DNA of 62,610 nucleotides, counting the filler, from Globobulimina sp. (Eukaryota): assembly GCA_003354225.1 (NCBI GenBank). It is 27 parts of 27 records of this genome, joined end to end, with 100 filler letters (N's around TTAATTAATTAA, not from the genome) between each part and the next. Parts side by side here need not be neighbours in the genome. Positions count along the whole stretch, not along the records: positions 48,782 to 51,003 come from PIVH01008092.1; 26 more parts are not named here. One strand, given 5' to 3'. Of the stretch, positions 4,649 to 51,003 are shown one piece after another. The first letter of the stretch is position 1, and the number at the start of each line of letters is the position of its first letter. Made by a program: the position numbers and the translations under genes. The notes under the pieces are model-generated. The model had not been told where the DNA came from. It saw nothing but the letters and a program-made list of their open reading frames with translations, and made no database searches.

Positions 4649-5538
4649 ATTCAAAGCTGTTTAAAACAGATTGAACAGATTGTTGATATACTAAATGATG
4701 ACTATGATGATGCAGACGAGCGCAAAATACCGTATTTGACAGATAGGGAGAAATATAATTTATTGGTACCTGCTTTGTGGAGAAGAATAACCGTACAAAC
4801 TTCGATAATAATGGCATAATTAATGGTATTACGCGCCGCGAGATCACCAAGCAAAATCCTGTGAATTTAGCTGGTATTATCAGAGCCATCATGCAATTAC
4901 CAAACAAATTGCAACCACGATGTGAGGCTAACAACCCTCGATATAAATTCGTGGTATATGATGACCGCAACATCAACATCTTCAATTTGACGAATTGGCC
5001 GAACCGATATCAAAATCCTGACCCGAATCCTTTCAATACCTATAACAAATTCTATGGCGCACAAACGAGAGATCGCGGTCGCGGCAGAGGTCGAGGTCGA
5101 GGACGCGGACGAGGCAGTTTCTGCGGACGTGGTGGATATAGAGGTCGTGGACGAAGAGGATCATTCCGTGCACGTGGTAGAGGCCGTAGGTTCTCCGGAA
5201 ATCGCAGACCAAGGCCCAGTTCATGGAATGACGAATCCAATGCCAAACGCGCTAAAATTGAGTGCTTTCGATGTGGAAAGCTTGGCCATTATAATACTGA
5301 GTGCTATTCCACGCTCCATAAAGACGGCCGACCTTTAACGAAACAAACAAATACAAAAACAGATAGAGGCAGAGGCGGACGAACCGGAAACCTCAAATGT
5401 TACCGTTGCGGCCGAGAAGGCCATATGCGGCGCGACTGCATCGCCAATAAAACAGTGTCCGGCGACGACATACATGATATAAAGGGTGTTGCAAAAGTCT
5501 GTGTACCCCATAATGGCTCCATAACTTGTCATATATGA
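4649..5538 (+). mobile_element. Gag-like nucleic-acid-binding ORF with an RG/RGG box and two CCHC zinc knuckles; frameshifted near 4770
   Basis: CFRCGKLGHYNTEC and CYRCGREGHMRRDC (CX2CX4HX4C) plus an (RG)n tract. A protein-like upstream frame from 4649 (IQSCLKQIEQIVDILNDD...KYNLLV) shifts by one base into the 4777 frame. No protease or RT is recognisable downstream. Confidence 0.5.
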
Positions 5539-11617: not shown

Positions 11618-12839
11618 TTTTCTTTGCGTAATTTGCCTATCAATACCTTCAATTCATTGTTATTTAATATCTTATTCACTTTCACATTGTTCGTAATCAA
11701 TTTACAGCGCGAACCAAACCGCAAAGATATTATGGTTTCGTCCCTATTGAACATATGTTTGGATGCATTGACAACCAATGTCGTCTTACAATTGCCGCCC
11801 AATGAATCTCTCAATACATGCGTCAGTTTGCTGTCTCTGAAGGGGACATGCTTCCTATTCTCAGCCAATGAGGAGATTACTTGACCTAAAACGGTCAATG
11901 ATAAGTTTATTTTTTGTGCTTCTTTCAAGCGATTTCCTGTAGCATTGGTTTTGCGTACTTTCTCACTGCCGGCAAGATCCACCATATTCAACTTGCCAAC
12001 CCGTATGCTGCCGTCATGTATCTTTATTGCCACCGTCAACACCATCAACATGTGACTGCGGGACGACGAGCGATTCATTGATGTTTCTGCTTTGGTACGA
12101 TACTTATTCGCACAGCCAATCAATTTGAGTACGTCTATTAATGTCATTACATGCGTTTCTGTCACATTCGTGATCTGGGTTTCGTGGTTTTTGTTTAATC
12201 GGATCTTTAATTGTTTTTTGGAGGAAGGATTGAGCAGATCTCGCAATTTTTCCTTGTAGATTTCAATAAATGATACGTTGACACGTGCTTCGATGATGTC
12301 GGGGGCATCTTCTATTTCGCTGAATATGTAGGATACTGAACGGGGGATAATACCCATTAACCGGGGGTCTCCGACACTGTCCTCGGGACCAAACATTGTA
12401 TAAGTTTTGCCTATGTAGTATATATTGTATGTCACTCTGATATTATATGAAATATATGCATGTTTTATACCAGATCCTGTCTGTCCTATATATTTATTAC
12501 ACAATGTATTGTATATATATTATGTTTTGCACAAGATATAGGCGTACCATATGCGAATATGCAGCCATTATAACCGGCTAAAACATCATTACAAACATGT
12601 TCTGCGACATGATTAAATGTGGATGACTGTGATAAGTTGTCATCGAGAATACGGTCAAATGTAAATCGGAGTGGCTCACTTGCTTTGATTGCACATATTT
12701 CGATTGCACCAATTTTTTTATCGTCATTATTTTGAAATATTATTGGTTTATCTTGGATTTTTAATTTTTTGGCCTCTTTTTTTTCACGTTTGTTTGTTGG
12801 GCGAAAACGAATTATGACATGGATAGTTTCTTGCGTCAT
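11618..12839 (-). CDS. Kinesin motor domain (kinesin-1-like), 3' incomplete; exons 12839-12548, 12485-12471, 12410-11618
   Basis: IFAYGQTGSGKT after splicing, NRSSSRSH switch I, DLAGSE switch II, HVPFRDSKLT. Confidence 0.95.
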
Positions 12840-18486: not shown

Positions 18487-18586
18487 NNNNNNNNNNNNNN
18501 NNNNNNNNNNNNNNNNNNNNNNNNNNNNNNTTAATTAATTAANNNNNNNNNNNNNNNNNNNNNNNNNNNNNNNNNNNNNNNNNNNN

Positions 18587-20116
18587 AAGTGTGTTTTTCA
18601 TATTCTGAAAAATTGAGGGCCTGTTAAGTCCTTCACCATACAGGAACTTGAGAACATTATTCCGGTTCAAATCATAAATAGCGGCAAAACGGCTCAAGGT
18701 CTCTATCTTGTCCCAGTCATACTCACCTTCGGCATTGTTGGAAACAATTTCAGTGGAGATTTCTCCGGAGTCGTCGATATCATCCTGTACCGTAACCTGT
18801 GTTCTGGCAAGATTATAAGACAGCATCTGGTCAAATCGTATACCTGCCGTAAATTTCAGATTAGACAGCAGCCGATAATCAACCTGGGTAAACAGCGCCC
18901 TTGTTCGGACATCACCCCTAACATGTTCAAATCCGTTCTCAAGGCCCGGATCACCAAAAGAGGGAAGGTCATATAAGCTGTGGGCATCCAATACAGTCCT
19001 GATATTGATTCCGGATGTTATCTTCAGGTCTTCATACGGTGTGACAAACGCATCAATCTCTCCTTCAAATGCATTTGAATCTATCTGTTGAGTTCCAAAA
19101 AAATCGTTTGATAGCAAATTAAATTTATAATAATCATTGTTTCTGAAATATCCCAGTTTAGTATTAAAAGAGAATAAACTGGAACATATTTTTTGATAAT
19201 TACCTGATATATTTATGGATGTATAGCGACCAAGAGTCCCTTCACCCCCGGACGGTGCTGGAAAAAATGAATAACTCTCTTTCTCATTTTCATTATATGT
19301 CACATTCAATGTCAGATTCTGGAAAAGGCCTGAAAAATTCATGTACTTTTGATTTTCTTCCAGAGTATTTTTTGTTCGATCATCAAGAGCAGCTCCCCAG
19401 CCATCAGGAAATTCATCATTCCGGAGTTCGGAATAGGATACATCGATTCCTTTTGAATCATAAATCGCTGCATCAATACTGTATTTTATCCGGTCATTTT
19501 GTGAAAATCCGGATGTACTGATAACCGTATTATATGTCCCTTCACTATCTATTGATCCGGATATTTGGCTTTGCGGGGCCTCTTCCGGCTTTTCACTGGT
19601 GATAATATTGATGACGCCATAAAATGCCCCGCTTCCGTATATGACAGACATAGGCCCCCGAATAACTTCAATTCTTTCAATGGTCTCCACAGGAACAGCA
19701 ATTTTTGTCAACGGATAGCTGGAATAAAGATCAGCAATCTGATTAACCCCCTTTACCAGGATGATTAAATTCCTGTTTGCCACACCCGTCCAGAAACCCC
19801 TTACACCGAACTTGGCACTATCCTCTCCATAATCGTCAATCAAGAACAGGCCGGGAATATTTTCCAAAATATCCTGCAGCCTTGTATATCCATAGGATTC
19901 AATTTCTCTACGGGAAATTACGACAACACTCGCAGGTATGTCCCTTACTTTTTCGAGCTGCTTGCCGGCAGTAACGACTTTCATGGTCATCAACTGCTCG
20001 ATAGACATATTGAATACATCTTCAGGTTTTAAATCATTTGCGGAAGATGGCATGCCATGGATAATAAAAAAGAAAAAAAATACGGCCAATGAAATGTTCA
20101 TTAAGTATTTCATCAT
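18587..20116 (-). CDS. Bacterial TonB-dependent outer-membrane receptor, 3' incomplete
   Basis: Signal peptide; MSIEQLMTMKVVTAGK...PASVVVISR...ILENIPG; plug motif IERIEVIRGPMSVIYGSGAFYGVINIIT; beta-barrel strands; no introns. Confidence 0.93.
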
Positions 20117-20440
20117 GGACCCCCGGGAATCATGATAGATTCCTTAAGTAGTTTTCAATATTTCAGGTTCTGGTAAATCAAACAGGTAGCTGGGTGACGC
20201 TTGTTGGCATCCGGTTGACGGCTTGGGCCAAATTGATCGAATATTATTTAACGTTTGTTCGAAAACAGATATTGCAGGAAATAGCCTTTTGGGGCCAGAC
20301 ACAATTTAATAGTATAAATTGAAGTGGAGATTAGCGTCTATTCGAATCAACTATTTTAGTAAAATGGATAAATATCCGGGAAATAATGAATTCGTTTTAA
20401 TTTAACCAATATATAAACGAAATGGTATGATATGTCAATT

Positions 20441-30201: not shown

Positions 30202-30933
30202 TCTTTTCTTTCTTTTGCCAACATAATATTTAACATCCCAATATGAATCAGGGTTTCCTCCAAAATTCGCAGCATCAAAAGCAATCCGATCATATCCTTC
30301 ATCGCCTTCTGTTGCTCCCCACGAATTTTTATAAACCCAATACTTGCAGGTTTTGTTTAATACATTATCAAATGCTTCATCATGAGCTACGAGAAGCACA
30401 GCATGTCCAGTTTTTTTATTATCACCTTTTTTATTATCACCACTTCCTCCCTCTAAACTCCATTTTGTCATTACATATTCTTTGAAAACAATATTTTTAT
30501 TTCACACAACACTCACACAACAAAGTACAGTGTTTACTGAACTTCGTGGATATTTTGAGTAAAAATTGAAATATTGGTTCCATTGACGCGATGTTAAATA
30601 AAATCCAGCAATGACCGCACGTCCTTCGTCAATTGCTGCCATTGCTCCATATCTACCAACCTTTACAACGTCTAAATCATAATCATCGGCTAACCATTTT
30701 AATGCATTTTTTGCCAATCGTCCATTATTACAGCCAAATTTGTTTGTTATTCTCCTAACAACATCGCAATGCTTAGGTACATCTGCTACATATTTCTCAG
30801 CTCTTCGTTTGCATGCTTCCACGACTATATTTGCAGCTGCATGAGCATAGCATGTCCCACCGTTTTGTATTGATATAGCTTTGCAACGATTTATTGCTGG
30901 CTTTTCATATTTATGCGCTTCAATTGGTGGCAT
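30202..30933 (-). CDS. Papain-like (C1) cysteine peptidase, 3' incomplete; intron 30542-30480
   Basis: QNGGTCYAHA (oxyanion Gln and catalytic Cys), GHAVLLV (His), YWVYKNSWG (Asn). Confidence 0.9.
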
Positions 30934-31013
30934 TGTTAAAGCAATTTAGTTTGAATTAAGGTTTTCAACTTCTGGAAAACATTAACCGTTAAATATATCA
31001 AAGAAAGAGCATC

Positions 31014-41715: not shown

Positions 41716-41848
41716 NNNNNNNNNNNNNNNNNNNNNNNNNNNNNNNNNNNNNNNNNNNNTTAATTAATTAANNNNNNNNNNNNNNNNNNNNNNNNNNNNN
41801 NNNNNNNNNNNNNNNCTACATATACAGTATTGCACTAATTAAAAACAG

Positions 41849-44037
41849 AAATTTATAACGAACGCTTGCGTGATTTACTAAACCCCAAACAAACGCCTTG
41901 CATTCGCGAGGTCCTAATCCACAAAAAATACGTTCCAATCATGCAAAACGTGACCACTGAGCACGTCAACAATTTGGAAGAGTGCATGGCTGCCATCCGC
42001 ATAGCCACCGCCAACCGAACCACTGCGAGAACCAATCTCAACGCCACCTCTTCGCGCTCGCATATGGTGATGAGATTGATCGTGACCATACAGACTAAGG
42101 ATGGTATGAAAAAAACGGGTATTGGGAACTGGGCAGATTTAGCTGGCAGCGAAAAGGTGAAAAAAACCGGTGTCAAAGGTATGCAGTTAAAAGAAGCAGG
42201 CAATATTTTAAAATCATTGTCGGCGTTAAGTAATGTGATTGATGCGTTGGAGAAAGGTCGCAAACATGTTCCCTTTAAGGATTCTAAACTCACGTTTATG
42301 CTGAAAAATAGTTTGGGTGGCAATTGCATGACCACTTTGTTGCTGTGCGCCTCTCCGAGTATGCAGAACAGAGAGGAAACGATCAGAAGTATACAGTTTG
42401 GTATGCGGTGCAGGAATGTGCAGAATGTGGTGTGTATCAATGAGGTTCGCAGCAAACAACAACTGATCGCAGAGAACGAGAAACTGAAACTGGAGATATC
42501 TGCATTGAAATGCAATGTGATCGCAGCGGAGGGCATTGTGAATGAGAAGTTGCATGAGTTTGAAATGGAGAATTTTGATTTGCTGGAACAGAGTGAAAAA
42601 AGCGAACGTAATATCGAGGTGTTACTGCAACAGATACAACAAATGAGTGTGGAGAGAGACGAGCGGAGGGAGAGAGAGAATGAATTGAACAATGAGTTGG
42701 AAGTAAATTTGAATGAATTGCATGAATATCAACGGCAGATTAAAGATTATAAAATAAATGTCGATGACTTAGGAAAGGAGAATGAGGGCATACAGCACGA
42801 AAATAAGGAGTTGGATCTGAAAAATCAAGAGTTGAATGTGGTTGTTACCGCATTGAATGAGGAGAGAAATGGATTGAGGTTAAAATATGAAAAGTTGCAG
42901 AATGAAAACAGTGAGTCTGAGAAACGAATTGTTTCATTGAAATCTGATTTGAAACAAATGGAGACTTTAAAACAAGAATTGGTTGATTTGAATTTGAAGC
43001 AGCAACATTTTGAAAAAGAAGAGTTGAGTTTGAAGCAGGAACAGTTGGTTGATATCGATGTAGGTTTAACAGTGACAAAAGATGTTGAAGAAATTAATGA
43101 GATTTTAAATGAATTAAATGATGAGAAAAATAAAAGTGAATTGAAAGAACAAGAATATAATAAATTGTTGTTCCAATTTGAAAATATAATGATTCAACTC
43201 AAAAACGAAAAAAATAAAAATGAAAATTTGGAAGTCAGTATGAATAGATTTGAGATGCAAACTGAGACATTAACCAAAGAAAAATATGAAATTAAAGATA
43301 AACATCGAGTGTTATATGCGGAATATAATGAGTTAGAAGAGAAATTTAATACATTCCAACAAAATATTAACATAGAAACGGATAAATACACTCAAAATAT
43401 CACGCAATTAAAATATCGAATGCACCAACAAAGCCAAGATAATGTTGCCTTATTATCCAAGTTAAAAAGTATTGAAAAATCTCAAGTAGAGCACGAAAAT
43501 GCATTTGCAAACAAATTGGAAGAGTTAGAAGTTGAAAGCGAAGAATTGAATGCAGAAATTAAAAAACTGCAACAAATAAATCAAGATCTCGAACTTGATA
43601 AAGATTCATTGGAAGATGAAGTAATTGAAGAAAAACAAGAAGAAGAAGAAGAAGATAATAATAATCCAATTAATAGTTACAACACCGAGGAATTTGAAGA
43701 GAAATATAAAGAGGAAAAGGAAAGTGATTGGCATTTTGGACATGCCCGCACCCGAAGCAGTGCCTGCATTCGTATCCCAACGGGGTTTAATGTATCAAAT
43801 ATATCAAATATAGCAATAAACATTACAACGCCTAACAAGAATGACACGTTATATGATGATGATGGTGATGCGGCAGCATTGGATAAATTAGAAGCGGAAT
43901 TAACATCAAATATATCTGGCTTAGCTACCTATCGACGCAAAAAACGCAAAAAATATAAAAAGCGTAATTTGCCAAAATCAATGACAATATTAGAGACTGA
44001 GGAGTTGGACAAGTTCAATAAATTATTATCACCGCGG
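41849..44037 (+). CDS. Kinesin: second half of the motor plus a long coiled-coil stalk; both ends incomplete
   Basis: EIYNERLRDLL after an acag acceptor, NATSSRSH, DLAGSE, HVPFKDSKLT. Confidence 0.93.
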
Positions 44038-46459: not shown

Positions 46460-47517
46460 CATGGATATTGAGAAAGGGCAATACGGCGGTACCTTAGATA
46501 ACCGTTTATTGTTTTCTCTCTGTGCTCTGTGGTCCACTCTTTTCGCACTTCCTGGTATGTGTATATAGTTATAATTGGTTATAAATGTACAAATGAAATA
46601 TATTTCTGCTATATTCCAGCATATATCTCTCTGAAATCACGCAGAAAGCCGCCACTACCAAAATCGGCATCACTTTGCACAGTATCTATTAAAGATTATT
46701 ATAAGGTGTTAAAAACTGCTACAAATTATCCAAATTTATTTTGGTGTTTGATTGCGTGGTTTATATGGAGGTATTTTGTATTTAATTTGTATGTGCATTT
46801 TAATATTTATACAAATACAAATAAAGTGATGCTATTGGTACTACGATGGCGATTGGTATGATATTCATGACAGTTGAGTTGAGGATGTCATCCCTTCAAA
46901 TAGTGGTGCTTTTGCTTGAATGGTGTATTTTATCCGTACCCTGTGCACTTTTTTTTATTTGGGTCAGTAAAAAATGGAACGTATCAAATAAAAGTTTGGT
47001 TGTCTTCCATTTATGTGTCAATGCATTGTTACCGTTATGGGTGGTTTTGAGTTTATTCCCGGGGTCTCCGGTCGGTTTGGTCCATGTCTGGGAAGTGTAT
47101 GTCATCGCCGGTGTACTTCTCGGATCACAGACGGGCTCTTTATTCGCAACTTCATTGTCGTTGTATGCCCATTTGATACCAATCGGACAGGAATCGCAGT
47201 TCTTTGGTTTATACGCAGTGACTGACAAAGGGAGCAGTTGGATTGGCCCTCTTTTGGCGACAGTAGTTTCAAATATCTCTACAATGAGATATGCTATGAT
47301 TTACGTCATATTTTTTTATGTTATTTCAATTCCGATATTGCATTTTGGTGTGGATTATGATCAGGGAATGATTGAAAGTGGAAGGCTCGTGGCGAAGAAA
47401 CCGTTATCAAACCCTGAGGATTCATTTGCTGCAAGTCCGGTTTCGCCAACATCTGCCTCTGAACTAAATACTGCTGCTCCCACCATTGCCGTTCAAATGA
47501 TGAATATGAAAGTGTAA
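46460..47517 (+). CDS. Atg22/UMF1-family MFS transporter, 5' incomplete; introns 46555-46619 and 46771-46826
   Basis: LWSTLFALPA..LKSRRKPPLP, AWFIWSDAIGT, SLYAHLIPIGQESQFFGLYAVTDKGSSWIGP (Atg22 signature). Confidence 0.85.
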
Positions 47518-48681: not shown

Positions 48682-49093
48682 NNNNNNNNNNNNNNNNNNN
48701 NNNNNNNNNNNNNNNNNNNNNNNNNTTAATTAATTAANNNNNNNNNNNNNNNNNNNNNNNNNNNNNNNNNNNNNNNNNNNNATTTGTGATCATGAGTATA
48801 ACTAAAAGTGCAACATCCATTTTAATTAGAAGAATTTATATTAGTATAAAAGGGTTACTAATAAATTCTTATTAGCTTTTATTTAACACAACCAAAAGAA
48901 GTCAAAGGAATAAAAAACACACTATCGGATTCATCATAAACTTCACAAGTATTTCTACCTTTACAGTTCATTAAACTATTCTTTAAATTATTAATCCAAT
49001 TCAAAACTTTTCTCAAATTAGTAGCATCAACATTTTCCTTTTCTTCTATCATTTTAATAGAATCAAGTTTTTTATGTAAATTAGCAACAAACA

Positions 49094-50314
49094 ATGCTTC
49101 ATCATTCGCTCAGAAAGGCACATAAATCTGCACGCGCTCTTAACCTGACCTTACAACAATCAATCGAACAAACTCCATTCCACCCATCATCCATTGGATT
49201 GCCATCGGATTTTTTATTAACATCGATTGCCAGTTTGAAAGGATGATCCTCTAAAATCCCTCAGAATGAATTAATAGCATTGCTGGAGGGAGTCGTAGGT
49301 CCATCGCAAGAGGACTCAATGTTGGACTGTTCAATCATAAAATGTGCAAATAATTTGAATCTCATATCATCCACAGACTATTTCTACCCTTTGGTGGCTG
49401 ACCCATATGTTCAAGGACGCATTGGTGCCACCAATGTAATCTCCGATATTTACAGTTTGGGCATTCCAAATATTGACAATATATTAATGATTCTTGCCGC
49501 ATCCACAGACATTAAAAATAAACAGCACCGCAACATAATAACATCGGAAATGATTTCTGGTTTCATAGATTCGTGCTTTTTAGCCAAGACTCGAGTGACT
49601 GGCGGCCATTCCGTCAACAATCCATGGCCAATAATTGGTGGCTGCGCGCAAACAGTGGTGACTGACGAACAGTTTATATCGCCATTTAATGGGCAATGCG
49701 GTGATTATTTGGTGCTGACAAAGCCTTTGGGCACACAGCTCACTGTAAATATGGATGAATGGAAGTCATTAAATGATGAGAAATATAAACAAGTAATCTC
49801 GGAAAATGTTATTGATGATGGTATAATTGATAAGATTGCAAATATTGGCAAAGGGAGTATGATGAAATTAAATCGCAATGCGGCCGTTTTAATGATTAGT
49901 GATAAATACAAGCAATATGTAAACGGTGCAACTGATGTGACTGGATTTGGCATACTCGGACATGCCCAGAACTTAGCAGTTCATCAGTATGGTAATAGAG
50001 GCAATGATGGCGACGGCCTGCAATTAGTTATTGACAGGTTACCAGTTATAAAATATAGCAATATTATTGATAAGTTTTTTGATGGAATGTTCAATTTAGA
50101 GAAAGGTTTTGCTGCTGAAACAAGTGGAGGTTTGTTGGTGATGATAAGTGACAAATATGCGGCAAATGATTTTATTGAAGAATTGTGGGAATTGGATGGT
50201 TGGCCCTCATGGATCATTGGAAAGGTTCGGAAGTATGACTGCAATGACACAATTACGATGAGTGAGGCGGCCATTATTGATGATAATTTTGAGTTTATTG
50301 AAGTTTATGGATAA
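49094..50314 (+). CDS. SEPHS2: Selenophosphate synthetase 2 (SelD/SPS2), a selenoprotein with TGA=Sec at 49244-49246 (residue 51 of 406 from ATG 49094)
   Basis: PFHPSSIGLPSDFLLTSIASLKG-U-SSKIPQNELIALL lies in frame upstream of ORF 49280. Family motifs STDYFYP, DPYVQGRI...NVISDIY, GGHS..NPW.IIGG, LVLTKPLGT, ATDVTGFGILGH and ETSGGLL follow. Confidence 0.95.
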
Positions 50315-50384
50315 GATAATGAATAATGAATATTAAATGGACTGTTTGCTAGTTGCTACTCTGTGGTTTTTATATTGATAACAA

Positions 50385-50455
50385 TATGCATTAAACGGAA
50401 GGTGATAGCAAATATGTGATATATGTTTGCTTGATATTGAATTAAATAATGCATA
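50385..50455 (+). promoter_or_regulatory. Candidate eukaryotic SECIS element in the SPS2 3'UTR (non-canonical)
   Basis: Helix I tatgcatta (50385-93) / taatgcata (50447-55); internal loop; core GTGAT (50402-06) / TGAT (50432-35); 11-bp helix II agcaaatatgt / atatgtttgct with two G.U pairs; apical loop gat. Confidence 0.75.
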
Positions 50456-50563
50456 GTTTTACTATATTAATTATTTACAGATAGTGTGTAAACAATTGAT
50501 TGAACAATCCGCCTCTTTGACATTAAGCAATATCTTATCTTTCAGTAACTTGACCGTAAAGCA

Positions 50564-51003
50564 ATGGCTCAGGCACAAGCGGTTGAAACAAATGGACAAA
50601 TAGAGGGTGGTGTGGATGCAGAAGATTTCCCAAACGAAGACGAACAAGATTCAGCATTAGTTGCATGGATAAATGAATATAAATTTCATAAAATGGTACG
50701 ATTTCTTACTATCTCAAACAGAAAATGATTTGAAAGAAATCGCCAAAGAACTAAAAATTAGCGTTATGCAACAAAAGAAAATGTTGTAAGCAGTTCAAAG
50801 AAAAAACAAAAATGGAACAAGAACAAAAACAAAACCAGAAATCTGTCCATTGCGACCAATCTGAAAAAAAAAATCTGACAACATTGCACATCCAAAGAAT
50901 AAGTGGGTAGAATCATTTGATACATTTGATTCACAACGAAAAGGACACAAAGTGCATCTCACAGACAATGCAAAAACAGCTTATGTGAAGAAAGATTTTA
51001 TTT
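50564..51003 (+). pseudogene. Disrupted gene with a SAM-domain-like segment
   Basis: MAQAQ...LVAWINEYKFHKM, a frameshift, then FLLSQTENDLKEIAKELKISVMQQKKML*AVQ. Confidence 0.4.

Follow-up and report, generated by a model that had tools for sequence, protein, structure and literature searches.

The SPS2 locus and its reading frame

The window, i.e. the whole 62,610-base stretch of DNA that was analysed, is made up of 27 contigs ordered from longest to shortest (2,221-2,224 bases each), separated by spacers (N44, a 12-base six-frame-stop sequence and N44 again) that recur every 2,321-2,324 bases. Since the window is a concatenation, the adjacency of contigs is meaningless and the real neighbourhood of the gene described here is confined to its own contig of 2222 bases (48782-51003), with a spacer on either side. 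This contig carries a selenophosphate synthetase gene (SPS2/SelD) on the plus strand at 49094-50314, comprising 406 codons and a TAA stop (50312-50314), provided that one UGA is read through. An in-frame TAG is located at 49058-49060 and the first ATG thereafter at 49094-49096, while the single internal stop of the frame is the TGA at 49244-49246, for which we predict selenocysteine (Sec51); other stops or frameshifts are absent from all 406 codons. The ORF list divides the gene into an upstream ORF (49094-49246, 50 aa) and a second one with a TTG start (49280-50314, 344 aa), in agreement with the truncation described in the sequence-only reading. Around the TGA, the product reads ...SIASLKG-U-SSKIPQNELIALLEG... 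(also written ...LTSIASLKG-U-SSKIPQ...), with the codons TGA TCC TCT AAA (49244-49255, plus strand) encoding a U-S-S-K active-site motif.

Support for these letters came from assembled contigs of public runs, not from raw reads. One contig (X1 record 1) covers 49063-50151 and another (X3 record 10) covers 49067-49249, both with 0 differences from the window. A third, from another study and under another organism label (X2 record 9), spans 49078-50489 with eight listed substitutions and also has TGA-TCC-TCT, because all eight fall elsewhere. A low-depth divergent piece with 18 differences lies over the site as well (X3 record 11, 49116-49270). The suggestion that TGA and TCC-TCT be confirmed in raw reads was thus followed in part: the same letters are present in runs of two studies, at the level of contigs only and not of raw reads. 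Differences within the frame amount to 4 synonymous vs 1 non-synonymous in X2 and to 14 vs 8 in a relative that is 90-95% alike (X6), and these sequence comparisons show the frame to be under purifying selection.

None of the four runs covers the left 280 bases of the contig (48782-49062). The X1 contig differs upstream of 49063, and a 2,907-base X2 contig departs from the window beyond 50489. Both flanks (48782-49062 and 50489 onward) may be strain-variable or misjoined. A 54-codon ORF without family match follows 250 nt past the SPS2 stop (50564-50728, plus strand). The X6 contig spans 50700-51003 with 1-, 2- and 6-nt insertions, and this part therefore looks non-coding.

Family identity and position of the UGA

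The read-through product belongs to the SelD/SPS2 family, as had been proposed from the sequence alone. It scored above the cut-offs of both Pfam domains (AIRS PF00586, 34.7 bits vs a cut-off of 24; AIRS_C PF02769, 32.1 bits vs 23.1) and of the NCBIfam selD equivalog TIGR00476 (176.7 bits vs 125), while scores for two PRK models of bacterial and archaeal types were under their cut-offs. Single alignments crossing the TGA were obtained to the Leishmania major selenophosphate synthetase (PDB 5l16, 1.8e-88) and to human SPS1 (1.2e-62), and the window protein agrees with an 18-sequence alignment at each of its 68 invariant columns. The alignment to 5l16 connects query residues 26-404 to chain residues 21-398, is gap-free ahead of the site, and places U51 on Cys46 and K54 on Lys49. 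The expected location of the TGA at the catalytic Sec/Cys position was hence borne out with U51 opposite Cys46 of Leishmania SEPHS2. These two residues of LmSEPHS2 are described in the available text of PMC7595633 as conserved catalytic residues of a glycine-rich N-terminal loop, and a Cys46Ala variant did not complement an E. coli selD deletion according to the same text.

The 50 codons ahead of the UGA (49094-49243, plus strand) encode the leader at the N-terminus and the first part of the flexible catalytic loop, and they have database matches of their own. Searched alone, this segment matched N-terminal sequence of Leishmania SPS2 (E 2e-08) and of a Phytophthora SPS (E 2e-07), and both alignments end exactly at LKG. 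A database search with the 50-aa piece further retrieved two proteins that are 76% (P0123) and 68% (P0124) identical and exactly 50 residues long, with Met start and KG end as in the window; 34 of the 50 columns are invariant. The contig of P0124 has 2,100 bases, equal to the contig of a truncated homologue (P0003), and it would fit that P0124 and P0003 are the two halves of one gene. A protein search restricted to residues 22-82 returned nothing at E<=0.001 and was uninformative on other proteins with an xSSK motif.

Relatives and the U-S-S-K motif

Homologues were numerous in protein databases (2,749 at E<=1e-20, the best 120 of which are listed). The nine closest among the best 120 share 66-73% identity, have 324-347 aa, and begin past the site, either with MALLEG or with the Met corresponding to M77. 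This agrees with the earlier expectation that gene callers would truncate the gene, which applies to all nine close homologues (9/9, among the best 120 of 2,749), and gene models of SPS2 in these organisms thus lose the catalytic loop. Two of the nine are EukProt proteins of Foraminifera, i.e. Bolivina argentea (P0004, ~71% identity) and Nonionella stella (P0009, ~69%), compared here as proteins. Their models start at a Met that lies beyond the UGA site, which would be the outcome if the same stop is present. These closest named homologues are in line with the rhizarian affiliation assumed before, and the SPS2 gene is probably that of a foraminifer.

More distant relatives from the environment retain the stop codon. 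A pattern search of JGI metagenome and metatranscriptome contigs yielded 594 matches and 506 relatives, and the best 80 (identity <=48%) were kept. The site is covered in 79 of these 80 loci (L074 starts downstream), 78 of which have TGA and one TGT (L072). The motifs are U-G-C-K in 43 loci, U-A-C-K in 35, and C-G-C-K in one, and the fetched environmental relatives read LKG-U-(G/A)-C-K. UGA is thus conserved at this position, and its presence in 78 of 79 environmental relatives (best 80 of 506) makes Sec at the site the norm in microbial eukaryotes.

The second half of the motif sets the window protein apart. Cys at +2 is found in 79/79 environmental loci (best 80 of 506). Motif matches were obtained in 56 of the 121 listed database homologues (C-S-C-K 37, C-G-C-K 14, C-C-S-K 2, W-C-S-K 1; the remaining two are a non-Cys E-P-V-K in P0068 and one false match), and a second Cys, mostly at +2 and rarely at +1, is kept in 54/54 listed homologues showing (C/W)xxK. 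Ser at both +1 and +2 occurs in no examined relative, i.e. neither in the 79 environmental loci nor in the listed database homologues with a motif match, and the atypical U-S-S-K without a second Cys noted in the sequence-only reading is indeed peculiar to this gene among them. The second loop Cys is near-universal in SelD/SPS but is not known to be essential in E. coli SelD. In the U-S-S-K loop, nature provides a test of the importance of this Cys for a Sec-type enzyme.

Three SPS homologues with 42-43% identity (P0041, P0053, and P0098) have loops of the form LKG-C-C-S-K or LKG-W-C-S-K with the second Cys at +1. The W in the latter suggests a TGA that was translated by a gene caller under another code.

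Candidate signals for selenocysteine insertion

Searches with Rfam gave no SECIS match in 49000-50900 at E<=10, where only noise was returned (snoR22 with 24.3 bits, snoR41, and mir-492), and nothing in the whole window at gathering thresholds. The sensitivity of this approach can be gauged from TGA-bearing relatives, in which sub-threshold SECIS were recovered in 3/20 at E<=1. A covariance model (R1) was built from 14 hand-selected SPS2 SECIS of relatives, with compensatory changes in 13/13 pairs. It scored 18.5-52.4 bits in 20 of the 80 loci, consisting of the 14 used for training and 6 of the 66 others. Its top scores in the SPS2 contig, over CDS and flanks, were 12.9, 12.6, 11.1, and 10.3 bits, and the best in the whole window was 15.3 bits (E 0.42), all of which are noise. 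Neither Rfam nor R1 revealed a canonical element, but both detectors are insensitive on protist SECIS, and the miss by R1 means little.

Clear type-2 SECIS-like structures were seen in the SPS2 3' UTRs of four relatives of the U-A-C-K group (L028, L034, L045, and L080). They carry AUU, UAU or ACC as unpaired bases at the usual adenine position, and in L028 the element is present three times in tandem.

Two candidate structures downstream of the gene were considered and rejected. The first, candidate A, combines AUGA (50319-50322), AAA (50335-50337), and UGAU (50376-50379) and reached 10.3 bits with R1. Seven of the ten pairs in its helix II are weak, giving +1.1 kcal/mol (-3.5 with apical substructure) vs -6 to -19 in relatives. 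The predicted fold of the region is no more stable than that of shuffled sequences (z +1.19), and the near-identical strain X2 has a 2-nt AT insertion in the 5' strand. Candidate C (50665-50745, 12.6 bits with R1) was discarded for a helix as weak as that of candidate A. A closed kink-turn hairpin was not found in 50560-51003, and a relaxed pattern scanner had no discrimination, as it reported dozens of equal matches within the CDS.

The best SECIS candidate, and the only robust one, is a non-canonical hairpin on the plus strand at 50385-50455. Its helix I of 9 bp (50385-50393/50447-50455) is followed by an internal loop and a kink-turn-like core with GUGA (50402-50405) opposite UGAU (50432-50435), which fits the UGAN/KGAW core consensus of SECIS given in the available part of PMC3753652. 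Helix II (50407-50417/50421-50431) has 11 bp, including two G-U pairs that make the structure specific to plus-strand RNA, i.e. the mRNA, and is closed by a 3-nt apical loop. The predicted energy is -18.3 kcal/mol, with z scores of -3.0 to -3.2 and only 1-2 of 200 shuffles as stable. A search of both strands of the whole window for [AG]UGA-N-helix-N-GA with at least 9 uninterrupted pairs found this hairpin only; first-order Markov simulations gave 0.53 such structures per window for at least 9 pairs and 0.28 for at least 10. This pattern corresponds to the SECIS core of textbooks, but its thresholds were chosen post hoc. The very short loop, the lack of unpaired apical adenines, and a 6-nt AT insertion in the loop of strain X2 argue against a SECIS. 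Based on folding models, we regard the hairpin as a candidate SECIS and not as a finding.

A second, smaller stem-loop is predicted 11 nt past the UGA (49257-49291, plus strand, -11.8 kcal/mol). Its position is like that of an SRE, and SPS genes have such an element there according to the accessible text of PMC4561486. Its stability is indistinguishable from shuffles (z -1.1 to -1.7).

Decoding of the UGA

We consider it probable that the locus holds an SPS2/SEPHS2/SelD gene of a foraminifer-like protist that is itself a selenoprotein gene, with UGA encoding Sec51 and a candidate 3'-UTR element at 50385-50455. An ordinary Sec-containing SPS2 is the most likely reading of the gene. The ribosome would start at ATG 49094, decode UGA 49244-49246 as selenocysteine, and end at the TAA at 50314. 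Sec51 and Lys54 would then form the catalytic pair in the flexible N-terminal loop of an enzyme converting selenide and ATP to selenophosphate. Insertion of Sec would be directed by an element in the 3' UTR, with the GUGA/UGAU hairpin as top candidate despite its deviation from the consensus. Sec-type SPS2 are scattered across protists (PMC4561486, in the text available), and a rhizarian alga, Bigelowiella, is credited with 23 selenoprotein genes in the available part of PMC7539508.

The deviating hairpin allows for a bolder version of this scenario, which we put forward as a speculation with rather low odds of being right. Foraminiferal SPS2 might achieve Sec insertion or UGA readthrough by a lineage-specific signal, i.e. 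a SECIS that retains the GUGA/UGAU kink-turn core together with helix I and helix II (11 bp), has lost the apical adenines, and tolerates strain variation in the loop, paired with a U-S-S-K loop without the second thiol. If true, the selenoproteome of this phylum would escape standard SECIS finders.

Readthrough of the UGA with a standard residue instead of Sec is improbable in our view. Such a protein would resemble the SPS1-UGA of Hymenoptera, which is without a SECIS, and would have an SPS1-like role other than making selenophosphate. There is precedent in the accessible text of PMC4561486, and the lack of a canonical SECIS hit by Rfam or R1, the loop without second Cys, and the stem-loop past the UGA would all be compatible with it. 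However, that stem-loop (z -1.1 to -1.7) is not an HRE-type three-stem structure over the UGA, and Sec is the rule in 78 of 79 protist relatives (best 80 of 506). Moreover, a hairpin resembling a SECIS core is present in the 3' UTR, and the detectors that failed are insensitive.

The likelihood is slightly lower still for a gene that is inactive or N-terminally truncated, in which case ribosomes would terminate at the UGA or initiate at Met77 without producing the full-length enzyme. The frame is interrupted under the standard code and database gene models start at Met77, but 406 codons without any other stop or frameshift, and substitutions that are mostly synonymous, speak against it. Two relatives also conserve the start, length and sequence of the ORF preceding the UGA, which matches SPS N-termini. 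Furthermore, N-terminally shortened trypanosomatid enzymes, ΔN-LmSEPHS2 (the crystal form without 69 N-terminal residues) and ΔN(70)-TbSEPHS2, did not complement selD as reported in the available text of PMC7595633. It follows that an enzyme initiated at Met77 would lack activity, and that function would depend on decoding of the UGA.

Reassignment of UGA to Cys or Trp in this organism, resulting in a plain Cys- or Trp-type SPS, is very unlikely. Kinetoplastids and oomycetes do have Cys at the site, and the window holds one more frame with both Pfam support and a TGA. This frame was found by reading TGA as X in 129 TAA/TAG-bounded frames of at least 100 codons: besides SPS2, a single one had a Pfam match spanning the TGA, namely a papain-like Peptidase_C1 on the minus strand (30202-30945). 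However, PDB alignments cover its residues 28-100 and 176-230, and the TGA at residue 148 falls between these Cys and His blocks. It is positioned just past GTGAGT and would be spliced out with a 63-nt in-phase intron that has AG at its end. This frame probably contains such an intron; failing that, it would be a pseudogene. Ten Pfam-supported ORFs with 3,828 internal codons contain 36 TGG and 82 TGT/TGC vs one TGA, that of SPS2, a count with some circularity, as stop codons define the ends of ORFs. Where an ORF ends in TGA, further stops follow within 2-57 codons, once as TGA-TGA. UGA therefore does not serve generally as a sense codon in the window.

That the TGA stands in error for a TGT or TGC, through sequencing or assembly, is scarcely credible: support comes from contigs and not raw reads and a divergent piece with 18 differences covers the site, but two studies have the same TGA in the contigs of their runs (X1/X3 and X2), the ORFs of two relatives stop there, and 78 of 79 distant relatives (best 80 of 506) have TGA.

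Comparison with known systems

The predicted Sec-containing SPS2 of this locus fits what has been described for Sec-type eukaryotic SPS2, the subject of a survey by Mariotti et al. 2015 (PMC4561486), in most respects. As far as the accessible text of PMC4561486 goes, SPS2 is a classic self-referential selenoprotein, and its Sec form is already known to be widespread in protists. The window gene shares the PurM-like AIRS N- and C-terminal domains, a catalytic UGA in the N-terminal loop with Lys at +3, a single-exon-like frame cut short by gene callers, and a scattered protist distribution. It deviates by U-S-S-K vs U-(G/A)-C-K in 78 environmental relatives, and a consensus SECIS (AUGA, apical AA, and GA) was not detected in the contig. 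Among solved structures, trypanosomatid SEPHS2 (PDB 5L16) is the best match, with ~43-45% identity to trypanosomatid homologues. FxPxSxGLPxxFxLT...LKG is common to both, and so is Ser at +1 (C-S-C-K in trypanosomatids), whereas kinetoplastid enzymes have Cys at the catalytic site and at +2, where the window protein has UGA and Ser, respectively. Hymenopteran SPS1-UGA is likewise an SPS gene that has a UGA in frame and lacks a recognisable SECIS, but in the available text of PMC4561486 its UGA is overlain by a large HRE of three stems and it occurs in lineages without selenoproteins, while the window has a modest stem-loop downstream.

SPS2 is an accepted marker of selenocysteine use according to the same text, and hence selenoproteins are very probably in use in this foraminifer-like organism and, judging by homology, in Bolivina and Nonionella as well. 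A literature search on selenoproteins in foraminifera, Rhizaria and Reticulomyxa gave no foraminiferal paper; Figure 2 and the supplements of PMC4561486, beyond its available text, may list rhizarian genomes, and the gene count for Bigelowiella (PMC7539508, in the part available) is the nearest literature. As standard SECIS models fail at this locus, selenoproteome surveys in Rhizaria may need a SECIS model of their own. Within the window, Pfam searches of 189 TGA-containing frames (129 long and 60 short) revealed no other known selenoprotein family, and a tRNA search found none.

Other sequences in the window

The remaining contigs hold genes of diverse origin. The contig at 18587-20809 (ORF 18539-20143, minus strand, GC 41%) encodes a bacterial TonB-dependent receptor with Plug and beta-barrel domains, and the assembly is therefore mixed and contains bacterial sequence. 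An ATG22-like transporter at 46502-47517 (plus strand) is divided between two frames (positions 242-308 and then 298-480 of the Pfam profile), which indicates an intron or frameshift near 46800-46825. A Gag-like protein at 4759-5538 (plus strand) has an RG-rich tract and two zinc knuckles of the CCHC type, ends in TGA with several more TGAs after it, and probably comes from a retroelement. Two fragments of kinesin motor domains were located on separate contigs, at 11618-12519 (minus strand) and at 41839-44037 (plus strand).
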